Notes under the pieces: generated by a model | Told to the model about the DNA's origin: nothing | The model's database searches: none | The model's input: only the letters and a program-made list of their open reading frames with translations | Virus record (IMG/VR): IMGVR_UViG_3300009103_000037 | Coordinates: 1-57,826 of that record | Strand: one strand, 5' to 3' | Origin: a virus | Taxonomy: Duplodnaviria > Caudoviricetes | Length of the DNA: 57,826 nucleotides | In this document: positions 34,686-48,884 of the stretch, in pieces | Layout of the letters: each line of letters starts with the position of its first letter | Position numbering within the stretch: position 1 is the stretch's first letter | Position numbers and translations under genes: made by a program

Positions 34686-35057
34686 TGGTGGAGGCGGCGG
34701 GAGTCGAACCCGCGTCCAAAATAAATCATTCTTCAAGTCATTCACAAGCTTGTCTGATGTATTCCCACATCAGCAAGGTAGCTACATTAAAACCCTTTTC
34801 TTATGTAGCCTCAGAAATCCACTCATTAAAATGAGGTATCCATCTTGATTTTTTATTTTCGCAGGATCTCTACCTGTTATCTAACATTGGGTAACAAGGT
34901 TGTTAGAAACCCAGACAACTAAGCTGCTAAAGCAAATTCGTTGTAGTAATAATTGTCATTGGCAATTATAAGTTTTGCAACAAGTTTTAAGCCATTTGTT
35001 ACCGTAGACTGCTTGCACTATCCGCTATCATTACCCTGTCGATACCATTTCGCCCCC
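34686..35057 (-). ncRNA. ssrA: tmRNA (one-piece); tag (A)ANDNYYYNEFALAA at 34919-34963
   Basis: 5' GGGGGCG..GGTATCGAC; 3' GACGCGGGTTCGACTCCCGCCGCCTCCACCA with G3-U wobble; tag ORF ending ALAA*. Confidence 0.95.
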
Positions 35058-44774: not shown

Positions 44775-44852
44775 TGGTCGGCTGACCGAGACTCGAACTC
44801 GGAACCCTCTGTTTATGAGACAGACGCTCTAACCTGATTGAGCTATCAGCCG
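44775..44852 (-). tRNA. tRNA with CAU anticodon (elongator Met or Ile2)
   Basis: CGGCTGA/TCAGCCG acceptor, TCTGT-CTCATAA-ACAGA arm, GTTCGAGTC and CCA. C1-G72 is paired and there is no GGG run, so it is not an initiator tRNA. Confidence 0.92.
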
Positions 44853-45299: not shown

Positions 45300-45542
45300 T
45301 TATTTCGGCTGCTTGGAGAGATATAGGTTTATCTTGCTCCATAAAGTCTTAAACGAATCAGTGGGCCTGACTCCAGCTTTTCTCTTTAACTTTCTAAACT
45401 TTCTTCTTATAAGTCTTTTTTGAAGTTTGTTATATCCGTCAAACGAATCTTTGCCCGTTTCTTTGTTATGTCGCCACAGGTCTTTAGGCAGAACTCCATA
45501 GAGTGTTTGGAGTATATAAGCTTCGGAATTATCATCGCTCAC
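45300..45542 (-). CDS. Hypothetical basic protein
   Basis: GAGG SD and GTG start. Confidence 0.55.
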   Translation of the reverse strand: MSDDNSEAYILQTLYGVLPKDLWRHNKETGKDSFDGYNKLQKRLIRRKFRKLKRKAGVRPTDSFKTLWSKINLYLSKQPK

Positions 45543-45551
45543 ATTAAAGCC

Positions 45552-45828
45552 TCAATTCCATAAGAAGGATTACTAGCTACCTTTCGGCAAAAGTAGTGTT
45601 CATCTGTTTAATATTATAGAAGACCTATGAAACGTAGTGGCAAACGAATCATTTGACCGAGCTTTTTCATTATTATGCTTAACGCCACAAATTGTATGTT
45701 ACCGTCACTTATATATTTCGGCAACACGTTTCTGAAACCCACCCTCTCTAAAAAGACAACCAAACCTTTTTAGAGTAACTTCAGAATTCCTCTCCAATCA
45801 ATAGTGTTGAGCGACAACACATTGAATA
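45552..45828 (-). ncRNA. Putative structured non-coding RNA (~270 nt), family unknown
   Basis: No ORF in the track; at least six nested helices whose G-U pairs work only on the minus strand; starts right after the tRNA CCA. Confidence 0.6.
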
Positions 45829-45906
45829 TGGTAGGGCTAGTAGGACTCGAACCTACAACCGTTCCGTTATGAGCGGAAAGCTCTAACCAGATTGAGCTAT
45901 AGCCCC
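45829..45906 (-). tRNA. tRNA with CAU anticodon, probably Ile2 (lysidine)
   Basis: GGGGCTA/TAGCCCT acceptor, TTCCG-CTCATAA-CGGAA arm, GGTTCGAGTCC and CCA. Confidence 0.92.
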
Positions 45907-45917
45907 ATAAGTAATAA

Positions 45918-46192: not shown

Positions 46193-47350
46193 TTATAATA
46201 CTGATTTTATAAGATCAATGTATCCAGAAATATTTTTTGGGTTATCAGGAGAGTGGTTCCAAATCATTTCTTCGCACCCATTGTTGTATATTTGTAATTC
46301 TTTCGAGCTAAGACCCCCATGCTGTAGGGCTTCTTTTAATTTTTCTTTTCCATCTAAAACATTACAGTCTTTATAATAATACCCATAACTCGAAAGGGCT
46401 TCCGAATTATGGACGAATGGGTATCCATTAAGCGCAAATTCAAAATATGTATAGTTAAGAGAGTTCATTATCTGATGACTCACCAAGACTCTGGCCTTAT
46501 TCGCAAAAATATCTATCATTGGCTCCCTGTTCTCTAAGGATAATACTTTATCTGCAAATACCTTTAGAGACTTTAGTCTTTGGCCCAAAACCTTTCCATT
46601 CTCCCCGCTTTTTAGAAATTTCGAATTAAAGACAAACCCGCTCCTTATTAACTCAGGAGTCTCTTTGTAAACTTCATTTATCATAATAATTGGAACTAGG
46701 TTTGTCTTCAGAAATGCTATGCTGGGTTCAACACAAGCCAAGGATTTATTTCTTTTATCTCCCCTCTTAAATGCAAGGCTATACTTTTCTCCAAGCTTCT
46801 GTTCATACATTTTTGAATATGTTTTTATAAAAAAGGGATTCCAAATATATGGGCACTGCTTCGCCTTATCTTCTGAGACTCCAGCTGTTAGCGCTATATA
46901 CTGCTTTTGAAACTCAAAGTGTGGACTATAAAGAAGAAGGTCTGGAGTAAAATTATGTGTAAGCCTAAACCACTCATTTAGATCATAAAGAGGCCTCATG
47001 TTTAAAGAATATTGAACGTAAGTTTCAATGTCCGAGCATAAGTTGTTTCCGTATTTAATAAGAATCAACTTAACTCCCATTGACTGTAAGACTCTAGCTT
47101 CCTTGCTACTCACAGAATAAGCAATCTGTATAATGATATCTTGTTTCTTTAATAGCTCTATATCATGCTTAAAGCTTTTTATCCCAAGAACATCCTTATG
47201 GCTACATGAGCCCTCAGAAATTAAATTTACATCAAACTCATTACTTTGATCAAGCATTTTCGCTAAAGACCAAGCGTTTTGATATAGACCATTTTTAAAA
47301 AAAGTACTTACATTTGTATTGCCCAGTATTGCTACTTTCGTCTTCCTCAC
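46193..47350 (-). CDS. DUF2827-like (glycosyltransferase-related) protein
   Basis: NGLYQN, SPH, PYIWNPFF, EPS...KTNLVP and SHQIMNSLNYTYFEFALNGYPFVHNS. Confidence 0.72.
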   Translation of the reverse strand: MRKTKVAILGNTNVSTFFKNGLYQNAWSLAKMLDQSNEFDVNLISEGSCSHKDVLGIKSFKHDIELLKKQDIIIQIAYSVSSKEARVLQSMGVKLILIKYGNNLCSDIETYVQYSLNMRPLYDLNEWFRLTHNFTPDLLLYSPHFEFQKQYIALTAGVSEDKAKQCPYIWNPFFIKTYSKMYEQKLGEKYSLAFKRGDKRNKSLACVEPSIAFLKTNLVPIIMINEVYKETPELIRSGFVFNSKFLKSGENGKVLGQRLKSLKVFADKVLSLENREPMIDIFANKARVLVSHQIMNSLNYTYFEFALNGYPFVHNSEALSSYGYYYKDCNVLDGKEKLKEALQHGGLSSKELQIYNNGCEEMIWNHSPDNPKNISGYIDLIKSVL

Positions 47351-47841
47351 AATGTATCTCCCGACCTTTTTAAAAGATCATACAACTTGCCTGGGGGCAT
47401 CCTCGGCGTATCATAGAGCTTTAGCTGCTTCCATGTTAACACCTTAGATACAGACAGGGCGTAGGCAACCCACTCGCTGCAATACCATTTATTAGGGAAC
47501 CTTACTTTGAATGGTGTTAGGTGAGAAATTATCATCCCCAGCCAATCGTAGCCTTGCCCTCTTGTGCTTTCTATAAAATTCCTTAGCGAGTTTAGTTGCT
47601 TCTCTGTTACGGTTATGTCAATAAAATCCCAATCCGCTTTCGGAAAGTTCCAGTCCACCTTCTGTATTCCCCCAAGTTTTTTCGTTCTGATTACCGGATG
47701 ATCTGGCGGGGTTATTCCTGTCATAGTTCCATTAGGCATAATGAGTTCTACATGACTATAGGGGCTGTCTGTCCACCACCTTACAATCCTATCCCTTCTA
47801 AGCCCCTCACCCTTGTAAAATGCTATCGTTATATCGCTCAC
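47347..47841 (-). CDS. Permuted papain-like amidase (YiiX/YebB, NlpC/P60 clan)
   Basis: SPYSHVEL precedes GQGYDW and KWYCSEWVA (His before Cys). Confidence 0.8.
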   Translation of the reverse strand: MSDITIAFYKGEGLRRDRIVRWWTDSPYSHVELIMPNGTMTGITPPDHPVIRTKKLGGIQKVDWNFPKADWDFIDITVTEKQLNSLRNFIESTRGQGYDWLGMIISHLTPFKVRFPNKWYCSEWVAYALSVSKVLTWKQLKLYDTPRMPPGKLYDLLKRSGDTL

Positions 47842-47870
47842 TAATCACCCCTGTCTATTTTATTTTATAG

Positions 47871-48884
47871 TTATTTAATCTTTGCCACGTCATCTCCCAA
47901 ACCATCCGGCTCATCAGAGCTGTTAGTATCTAATTCTCCGCTAAGAATATCAGATATGTGTTCGCGTATCCTGCTTCTAGTTGGGCGACCAGCCTCGCCT
48001 GTATCTTTTTTATATTCGGCGTGCTCCCACTCAACACCTGCATCTTTTAAAAACTCATTTGCCTCAATTATCATTTCAGTATGAGTAGTTACTTTCCCCT
48101 TTGTTCCTTTTACGAAAGATATCCATCTTCGTCCCGGCTCATTGTTGTTTATAATAAACTTCGAAATAACTTTGCCAAGCTTTCGTATAACCTCGCTATA
48201 CGCCTCTTTGTCAAATGGTACAGAGAATTTTTCTCCAACTAATTTATCCCAATCTTTCGTGTGCATACCGCTCGCTCTCTGAGAAGGGTCTTTGAAAAGT
48301 CCAGGCACATCATATCCGGGGAAGCTCTCCCACATATCCTCAGGAACAATTCCTAATGGCTCAGATATTGTCACCCAATAAGCGAGTTTTTCTTTTTCGT
48401 TTAATCGATCCTTAATATCACTATAGGCCTTATAATACTGTCCAGAGCCAGGACAGCTCTCCCCCCAAGGCTTTGAGGCTGCACATGGAACTAAAATAAT
48501 ATGCTTATACTTTTCTGGAATCACAAAGTCTTCTATTTCCTCAAACCAAGCTTGTATTTTTGGATTTTTTAGTAAATCTAAAACCTCTCCTGGAGTATAA
48601 GCGGTTAACTCTGGGTCGTATTTAAAATCCCCTGTTTCTTTATAGCTTGAGCTAGGCTTTTTGCTCACAAGGTGAGGCCGCAAGATATTGTCGTAAGTGT
48701 CTTGATCTATATAAGGAAAGCTGCTCCCTTCCTTTTCCTTACCCCACTGATCAGCCTCCCATTGGGATACAGGCGCAGCCTGTTTTAATATCAAGTCAGC
48801 TTGATCCGCAAGAGAGTATAATCCACCACTATCTAGCTCATTGGCTATCAAGATTAATTCTTTAATGGACCTCAGATTCATCAT
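47871..48884 (-). CDS. Targeting-motif + DUF5591/archaeosine-synthase-like domain
   Basis: IKELILIANELDSGGLYSLADQADLILKQA; ILVPCAASKPW, ISEPLGIVP and YDVPG. Confidence 0.7.
   Translation of the reverse strand: MMNLRSIKELILIANELDSGGLYSLADQADLILKQAAPVSQWEADQWGKEKEGSSFPYIDQDTYDNILRPHLVSKKPSSSYKETGDFKYDPELTAYTPGEVLDLLKNPKIQAWFEEIEDFVIPEKYKHIILVPCAASKPWGESCPGSGQYYKAYSDIKDRLNEKEKLAYWVTISEPLGIVPEDMWESFPGYDVPGLFKDPSQRASGMHTKDWDKLVGEKFSVPFDKEAYSEVIRKLGKVISKFIINNNEPGRRWISFVKGTKGKVTTHTEMIIEANEFLKDAGVEWEHAEYKKDTGEAGRPTRSRIREHISDILSGELDTNSSDEPDGLGDDVAKIK

Follow-up and report, generated by a model that had tools for sequence, protein, structure and literature searches.

What is encoded by the 286 nucleotides that separate a tRNA gene from a small open reading frame (ORF) on the minus strand of an uncultured phage genome? 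The original prediction placed in this interval a novel structured RNA that is co-transcribed with the tRNA. On the basis of the comparative analysis described here, we consider it very probable that the RNA is real, novel and structured, and that it is coupled to the downstream gene for an 80-aa protein.

The locus and its genomic setting

The window, i.e., the whole stretch of DNA analyzed, is a viral record of 57,826 bp with a completeness rating of 17%, and in view of this rating it represents part of a jumbo phage genome. Nearly all of its ORFs are found on the minus strand, and its genes include those for an IMPDH/GMP-reductase-like protein, adenylosuccinate synthetase, a glutamine-synthetase-like protein, a chaperonin, a sigma-70-type factor and a DNA ligase. 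A series of host-like genes for metabolism and proteostasis is clustered at 4239-27221 and comprises an M16 peptidase, DUF2201 with an AAA ATPase, the IMPDH/GMP reductase domain, adenylosuccinate synthetase, the chaperonin, the glutamine-synthetase-like gene and a 5'-3' exonuclease. Genes for a DUF2827 protein, a 164-aa protein and a DUF5591-domain protein (46193-48884, minus strand) are all located upstream of the tRNA; DUF2827 is also encountered upstream in the related loci L014, L017 and L024, and a DUF5591 protein upstream in L018.

At gathering score, Rfam 15 recovered a tmRNA and three tRNAs from the window and nothing else. The tmRNA (34686-35057, minus strand) scored 124.2 bits against the Rfam model and encodes the tag peptide ANDNYYYNEFALAA. 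One of the tRNAs is a tRNA-Leu (ARAGORN/Rfam) and the other two, which differ from each other and lie about 1 kb apart on the minus strand, have the anticodon CAT. The first of these, at 44775-44852, is distinct from the one directly upstream of the RNA studied here (45829..45906; called tRNA-Met by ARAGORN, Rfam tRNA 69.2 bits), which has an encoded CCA end. By eye, neither CAT tRNA resembles the bacterial initiator, and one of the two may be a tRNA-Ile of the lysidine type. In the related 316-kb phage of locus L027, a gene for a PP-loop (TilS-like) ATPase (L027:1448-2146) lies just before a tRNA-Leu and the RNA. When the window locus was compared with GenBank phages, the tRNA part alone was matched, in 35 records, and tblastn searches with the two neighboring proteins gave no match among the same phages; no cultured GenBank phage shares more than the tRNA with the window.

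The structured RNA together with its tail (45543..45828, minus strand; 286 nt), as defined by homology, the model CM R1 and covariation, reaches to the GTG of the next gene. The conserved fold ends at 45568, and in the window it amounts to about 260 nt followed by a tail of 25 nt; relatives measure 150-300 nt. The pyrimidine-rich tail (45543..45567) contains, as read from the sequence, a GAGG 9 nt before the GTG start at 45542. This codon opens the gene directly downstream (45300..45542, minus strand), which codes for a basic, predictedly helical protein of 80 aa with an invariant RKFRKLKR. A minimal AUG-UGA start-stop pair (AAUGUGA; 45539-45544, minus strand) overlaps the GTG start and is kept in close relatives.

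Distribution of the RNA and its link to the downstream gene

Searches with the two small proteins that flank the RNA led to two viral contigs whose DNA was 91% and 81% identical to the window over about 1 kb. For the downstream protein, 12 relatives were detected among 5.8 billion protein clusters, and the alignment of these relatives uncovered 24 metagenome loci, with protein identities ranging between 91% and 35%. The RNA could be aligned over its whole length in the window and 13 loci, 14 sequences in all. Among the other 13 loci, the arrangement CAGATGAA-hairpin-AGTAATC was present just upstream of the ORF in 12, the exception being L022, for which 10 nt of upstream DNA are available. Altogether, 26 of the 27 related loci have the 3' motif of the RNA ahead of the protein ORF, L022 being the 27th, and the link between RNA and ORF is strict at protein identities as low as 35%.

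CM R1 gave 207-323 bits for the window and 12 full-length loci, 155 bits for L013 and 108 bits for L024, and 18-42 bits in distant loci. With filters switched off, R1 did not find L027, L029, L031 and L114 above noise, and these four were assigned by the motif, the kissing pair described below and the protein, not by R1. When the RNA motif alone was run against 2.9 million viral contigs, 33 stretches were obtained, four of which had the hairpin, and in all four the protein gene was found downstream. True copies of the RNA occur once per whole record, including a record of 316,664 bp rated 94% complete. The neighboring genes vary by lineage (DUF2827, RNA ligase, PP-loop ATPase or DNA ligase), which argues that RNA and gene move jointly, as one module. 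The DNA contigs of three further studies also contained relatives of the locus, with 11-35 differences.

In prokaryotes (one genome each of 185,579 species), a scan with the protein pattern returned 52 stretches, none of which was confirmed, and a scan of the same set with the RNA motif returned 47 stretches, none with a basic-motif ORF within 500 nt downstream. Five of these 47 had a chance stem of at least 5 bp and none was recognized by R1 at E ≤ 1, a model that is blind to the most distant members. An exact 18-nt scan match in L004 was located inside a coding region and was discarded as a chance match. A segment of 42 nt (45544-45585; 3' half of the last hairpin, AGUAAUC and tail) matched, with 8 differences, high-depth contigs of 359-8225 nt from three DNA runs; the flanks of these contigs are unlike the window and the match is probably due to chance. 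In summary, the RNA is restricted to uncultured jumbo phages of marine origin, whose genomes also encode a tmRNA, tRNAs, a sigma factor and a chaperonin.

The distance from the 3' core of the RNA to the start codon is 17-30 nt in most lineages and 45-106 nt in L023, L025, L026, L029 and L031. Between RNA and ORF, locus L026 has a perfect 13-bp hairpin with a loop of 11 nt (L026:2400-2470), which was not called by the terminator scan; the ORF upstream in the same locus (L026:538-1377) shows weak matches to RNA ligase and to an intein-splicing domain.

Secondary structure and its comparative support

All helices listed in the original prediction could be located in the sequence where it had placed them. 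In the predicted structure (all positions on the minus strand), the first hairpin H1, GUGUUG-UCGCU-CAACAC (45804..45820), begins 8 nt after the tRNA and is followed by a conserved purine block GGAGAGGAA (45787..45795) that is invariant or nearly so in the alignment. The 5' domain (45731..45785), indicated by covariation, consists of the helix UCUGAAG/UUUCAGA (45779-45785 with 45731-45737) around UUAC/GUGG and a long hairpin (45747-45774), and it includes a conserved UGGUU loop in the long hairpin (45758-45763) as well as a conserved GAGG-GUGGG strand (45738-45746). A helix AACG/CGUU (45727-45730 with 45631-45634) would close a multiloop that contains the variable hairpin UGUUGC...GUAACA (45697..45726) and the helix GUGGCG/UGCCAC (45683-45688 with 45637-45642), the latter enclosing an A-rich stretch and the pentamer UCGGU (45656..45660). 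The 3' core (45568..45606) is composed of CAGAUGAA (45599-45606), the last hairpin CUACUUUU-GCCG-AAAGGUAG (45577-45596) and AGUAAUC (45568-45574).

When the window sequence was folded on its own, a minimum free energy of -64.6 kcal/mol was obtained (z = -1.47) and 15 of 200 shuffles folded as well. The comparison of folding energies with shuffles, named in the original prediction as a possible refutation, is thus not significant for the window alone, whereas the comparative data settle the question in favor of a structured RNA. In the three closest loci, mean column identity over the RNA is 93%, their 1-kb neighborhoods are 81-91% identical, and compensatory changes occur at five pairs already among these three sequences. 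For 11 homologues aligned with MAFFT, RNAalifold predicted 61 pairs, 19 of them changing on both sides. With the same 11 sequences, a hand-written structure of 60 pairs showed 95.6% standard pairs, compared to 90.8 ± 0.5% for shuffles and 41.1-48.9% for slid partners, and 19 of its 60 pairs changed on both sides, compared to 7.8 ± 1.9 for shuffles and 3-7 for slid partners. None of 500 shuffles reached the observed value on any measure, so that the covariation foreseen by the original prediction was indeed found. In an alignment of 14 sequences, which was made with model R1 and hence is biased towards the structure, 94.3% of the cells were paired and 34 of the 60 pairs changed on both sides (0 of 500 shuffles).

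In this 14-sequence R1 alignment, covarying pairs amounted to 4 of 6 in H1, 10 of 11 in the long hairpin, 3 of 10 in the UCUGAAG/UUUCAGA stack, 3 of 6 in the variable hairpin, 4 of 6 in GUGGCG/UGCCAC and 7 of 8 in the last hairpin. The closing helix AACG/CGUU is weak, with 74.5% of cells paired and 3 of 4 pairs covarying. Locus L026 keeps the outer UCUGAAG/UUUCAGA helix by means of two double changes (pairs 52/111 and 53/110). Well supported by these comparisons are the predicted first hairpin, the stacked helices of the 5' domain with the long hairpin, the two internal helices and the last hairpin. For UCAU/AUGA and UUGG/CUAG, no double changes were seen among the 14 sequences, and the UCAU/AUGA pairing was dismissed, being contradicted by the GGU...ACC frame of L114 and L124 (see below). 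An extra helix beside the kissing partner was also rejected, as its control failed (a mean of 4.27 of 5 positions paired within the same sequence and of 3.99 across sequences).

G-U pairs had been taken as a sign of an RNA read from the minus strand. In many helices U-G is fixed, for example in 11 of 11 sequences at two pairs, as would fit such an RNA. Of the end-to-end pairing GGAGAGGA/UCCUUCUU, compensatory changes among the three closest sequences speak in favor, but it is not kept in distant members, as judged from their tails. Likewise, the purine block GGAGAGGAA is a possible partner of the pyrimidine tail, a pairing supported in the three closest sequences only. No reading frame of the RNA is open in all homologues, and a 49-aa ORF of the window is interrupted in 4 of 7 homologues tested. 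Judged by comparative evidence, the interval 45543-45828 is a conserved, non-coding and folded RNA.

A kissing pair and a putative loop-E-type frame in the 3' core

Two features of the 3' part, as well as the link to the 80-aa gene, had been missed by the original prediction. In the last hairpin, the loop GCCGA (45584-45588) forms a long-range kissing pair of 5 bp with the complementary pentamer UCGGU (45656-45660). The partner is located 49-57 nt (about 55 nt) upstream of CAGAUGAA in every lineage. If the partner was fixed by this position, 99 of 100 cells were paired in 20 sequences, compared to 86.5 ± 1.6 for shuffled partners, of which 0 in 2000 reached 99, and to 3-50 for slid partners. 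Each of the five pairs is realized by two or three standard pair types, and nine types of kissing loop with matching partners were encountered, to which L124 adds a tenth (CUAGG with CCUAG at position -55).

The last hairpin is flanked by GAUGAA and AGUAAUC, which are invariant in 20 of 20 aligned sequences. In L114 and L124 the frame reads GGU...ACC in place of GAU...AUC, a change on both sides that would preserve a helix of 3 bp. In motifs of the loop E or bulged-G (sarcin-ricin) type, an AGUA strand lies opposite a GAA strand, with Watson-Crick pairs flanking them. We read the 3' core as a 3-bp helix GAU/AUC with a putative GAA/AGUA internal loop of the loop-E type, topped by the hairpin; GAU-GAA/AGUA-AUC agrees at the sequence level with this consensus in 20 of 20 sequences and would adopt the geometry of the motif.

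The 80-aa basic protein

The protein belongs to a small family, for which a search of 1.84 billion representatives gave 52 clusters at E ≤ 0.001, and all members seen are short and have G-I-I-P and KRKFRKLKR-like motifs. At E ≤ 10, Pfam gave one chance row and no family, PHROG gave no match, and a profile of 16 sequences run against all chains of the PDB gave two unrelated rows (E = 0.87 and 4.1). AlphaFold predicted four helices, the longest of which contains the basic motif, at middling confidence (pLDDT 69.4). In fold searches with this predicted structure, the best Foldseek hit had E = 4.0 and the best VIA-align hit Z = 4.3, none reaching Z ≥ 5, and a search of the Atlas returned no usable match. 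A supposed likeness to the small ribosomal proteins bS21 or bL20 was abandoned, as neither Pfam nor PDB supported it.

The 5' end and the expression of the RNA

The RNA is encoded on the same strand as the tRNA and begins 8 nt after its CCA. In the window, the promoter scan detected no promoter-like site between tRNA and RNA and the terminator scan no terminator-like site between RNA and ORF; H1 was flagged as a weak terminator-like site. When 26 upstream regions were analyzed with ARAGORN, a CAT tRNA ending 8-12 nt before the first hairpin was found in 13. In L024 the tRNA is placed about 80 nt further upstream, L027 has a tRNA-Leu, and the remaining 11 regions, two of which are truncated, are without a tRNA. 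In L114, which adds to these 26, a tRNA-Ala stands directly upstream. Six lineages (L019, L023, L025, L026, L029/L030 and L031) possess the RNA without the tRNA, and L124, outside the scan of 26 regions, is a seventh; in L124, a tRNA-Ile(TAT) and a tRNA-Met(CAT) (L124:1553-1715) are situated about 430 nt downstream of the protein gene and not upstream of the RNA. The tRNA-less L026, L031 and L029 have promoter-like sites (10-11 of 12 matches) whose ends lie 5-25 nt ahead of the RNA; the number of such sites is not above that in shuffles, and it is their position alone that is suggestive.

Among RNA libraries, one run with 7% of the sampled words yielded a single contig of 151 nt at depth 2 over 45799-45910. 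This contig, from an oligo-dT metatranscriptome, covers the tRNA and the first 30 nt of the RNA only, and regions left uncovered by metatranscriptomes do not count as evidence of absence. Co-transcription with the tRNA, as claimed by the original prediction, is plausible because RNA and tRNA share a strand, are spaced by 8 nt, have no promoter-like site between them and are recurrently adjacent. We infer that the RNA is transcribed and that its 5' end would form in a tRNA-dependent manner.

Comparison with known RNA families

In the cmscan check against Rfam, no family reached its gathering score at the RNA and none that was relevant appeared at E ≤ 10, neither over 1.8 kb nor with the 296 nt alone, for which 4227 families gave a single row, a chance microRNA match with E = 4.7. 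Together with strong covariation and the lack of a conserved reading frame, this upholds the claim of a novel structured RNA. Motifs from the supplementary lists of RNA-discovery studies are caught by such Rfam scans only if they were later entered into Rfam. A full-text search of the literature, which cannot find a sequence, turned up no description of the RNA or of the protein. At E ≤ 10, no row of the HDV family was obtained on the 296 nt, it being uncertain whether Rfam 15 holds a theta model.

The original prediction had noted a loose echo of RNase P RNA (GAGGAA, AGAUG), and these short sequences are all that speaks for a reduced RNase P RNA or another known ribozyme. RNase P models, built on conserved regions I-V of the P1-P4 core, gave no match at E ≤ 10 on the 296 nt (bacterial A or B, archaeal, nuclear or type T) or on 1.8 kb. 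Helix P4 would require long-range pairing of the strand close to GAGGAA with one near the 3' end, and this would-be P4 strand pairs locally (45779-45785 with 45731-45737) in a helix that covaries, as in L026 at pairs 52/111 and 53/110. The echo was not borne out, and we regard this identity as extremely improbable.

Discussion

Tentatively, and with a probability of about 0.45, we propose that the RNA is both the partner and the operator of the basic protein. The RNA would constitute the 5' portion of the transcript that encodes this small, very basic and predictedly helical protein; in some lineages the tRNA 8-12 nt upstream would be processed away and thereby set the 5' end of the RNA, and in tRNA-less lineages this end would stem from a promoter of its own. 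An accessory 5' domain, with two stacked helices, a long hairpin with its UGGUU loop and a GGGUGGG strand, is joined to a universal 3' core, in which a putative loop-E-type motif on a 3-bp helix frames a hairpin whose apical loop engages in a kissing helix of 5-6 bp. The basic helix KRKFRKLKRK of the protein may bind this 3' core, and the protein may limit its own translation by using the core as operator; such a role is suggested by the position of the core, whose end is 17-30 nt away from the start codon in most lineages. The operators of autoregulatory leaders such as those named below comprise 30-150 nt and mimic another RNA target, several of them having pseudoknots or loop-E-like sites, and it speaks against the operator that the present RNA is far larger and more ornate than known protein operators. 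The distances of 45-106 nt between core and start codon in L023, L025, L026, L029 and L031 argue against a simple occlusion of the ribosome-binding site, and the protein model, at pLDDT 69.4 and matching nothing, also weakens the proposal. It is possible, if with the odds against it, that RNA and 80-aa protein, rich in arginine and lysine, constitute a new kind of trans-acting phage ribonucleoprotein, or that the fold represents a new class of riboswitch or ribozyme confined to marine jumbo phages. Such a ribonucleoprotein could address the translation or tRNA machinery of host or phage, as a decoy or sensor using the UGGU loop for tRNA 3' ends, or, by analogy with N/nut antitermination, it could act on the transcribing polymerase.

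Alternatively, the RNA might be a riboswitch-like sensor in the 5' untranslated region that binds a small molecule or uncharged tRNA and sets the expression of a protein which does not itself touch the RNA. Its size, its invariant unpaired nucleotides and its kissing pair are typical of aptamers, it stands consistently 5' of one ORF on the same strand, the UGGU of the hairpin loop is complementary to the ACCA end of tRNAs, whose genes often adjoin, and L026 has the perfect 13-bp hairpin between RNA and ORF, which the terminator scan did not call. As a rule, riboswitches of one class regulate several gene families, whereas every copy found here lies before a gene of a single protein family and each genome has one copy. 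Moreover, no Rfam riboswitch or T-box model matched at E ≤ 10, and the supposed AUG 'specifier', part of the putative loop-E frame, is invariant in spite of the varying upstream tRNAs (Met, Leu or Ala). We judge a sensor of this kind to be unlikely. To a similar degree, we doubt that the RNA is a stand-alone stable species, freed from a tRNA precursor like the small stable RNAs of the T4 tRNA cluster or GOLLD and ROOL, and acting in trans, with the downstream gene as a cofactor or mere neighbor. Its place directly behind tRNA genes in most lineages would suit this explanation, as would the frequent location of GOLLD and ROOL near tRNAs and in prophages (PMC5737381). Such an RNA might even form a multimer held by loop contacts, since the commonest kissing sequence, CCGG, is self-complementary and covariation cannot separate intramolecular from intermolecular contacts. 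However, the window has no terminator-like site between RNA and ORF, the ORF link is strict down to 35% protein identity, and the RNA has half the size of ROOL and is matched by neither the GOLLD nor the ROOL model.

Still less probable, in our opinion, is an element for processing or for mRNA stabilization at the tRNA-mRNA junction, be it a self-cleaving ribozyme that liberates the 3' end of the tRNA or a fold that keeps out nucleases once the tRNA is excised. A position 8-12 nt after the tRNA CCA and a pseudoknotted fold would be in line with it, and minimal HDV-like theta ribozymes are reported to adjoin phage tRNAs (PMC10879173 and its preprint). Yet six lineages and L124 have the RNA without a tRNA, no Rfam ribozyme family matches, the most conserved part is located at the 3' end, far from the tRNA, and such an element would not account for the strict link to one protein.

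To our knowledge, few large structured phage RNAs are known, and almost none of them has a function. The present one is tractable by experiment, as it offers a compact invariant core with a putative loop-E-type frame and a kissing pair with ten covarying variants, a dedicated 80-residue protein outside known families, and a defined RNA start, after a tRNA or a promoter-like site. The pair would constitute a new RNA-protein recognition module if it proved to act as a ribonucleoprotein or as a protein-sensing switch, and if the RNA sensed a ligand or a tRNA, it would define a new sensor class. Since it is confined to jumbo phages with tmRNA, tRNAs, a sigma factor and a chaperonin, the RNA may contribute to the takeover of gene expression by such phages.

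How does the RNA compare with known systems? It resembles the theta (minimal HDV-like) ribozymes in its pseudoknotted fold and its position right next to the tRNA gene of a phage (PMC10879173). Theta ribozymes are small, and HDV-like ribozymes have a nested double pseudoknot with cleavage at their own 5' end, abutting the tRNA. Here the conserved core is more than 200 nt away from the tRNA, and six lineages as well as L124 are without a tRNA. With T-boxes it shares a leader of 200-300 nt, a tRNA-related context and a UGGU that could in principle pair with the ACCA end of tRNA; it differs in that no model matched at E ≤ 10, the order is reversed, with the UGGU loop 5' of the AUG motif, where T-boxes have Stem I and its specifier loop 5' of an antiterminator with the UGGN bulge, and the downstream gene is not related to aminoacyl-tRNA. 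HEARO (omega RNA) is a large structured RNA immediately 5' of the ORF of its partner IscB. Here the partner would be a helical protein of 80 aa without a nuclease domain, and the HEARO model gave no match. Autoregulatory leaders include the L20 leader with its pseudoknot, the T4 gene 32 leader and lambda nutL upstream of gene N. The present RNA is akin to them as a structured 5' untranslated RNA before the gene of a small basic protein, with binding known for the leaders and linkage observed here, but it is larger (up to about 290 nt), has two predicted domains, and its protein is not recognizable as a ribosomal protein or N homologue. In the tRNA cluster of phage T4, the small stable RNAs species 1 and 2 are non-tRNA products matured from a precursor shared with tRNAs, and we know of no partner protein gene for them. 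Like these, the present RNA is encoded in a phage tRNA region; the T4 RNAs are smaller.

GOLLD and ROOL are ornate RNAs of phages and prophages with pseudoknots, often near tRNAs and of unknown function (PMC5737381), ROOL averaging 581 nt and GOLLD being larger. The present RNA is similarly phage-borne, richly structured with a pseudoknot, and located near tRNA genes. Compared to the GOLLD and ROOL RNAs of about 580-800 nt, it is shorter (150-300 nt), and neither Rfam model matches it. Unlike GOLLD and ROOL, it is tied to one downstream protein gene.
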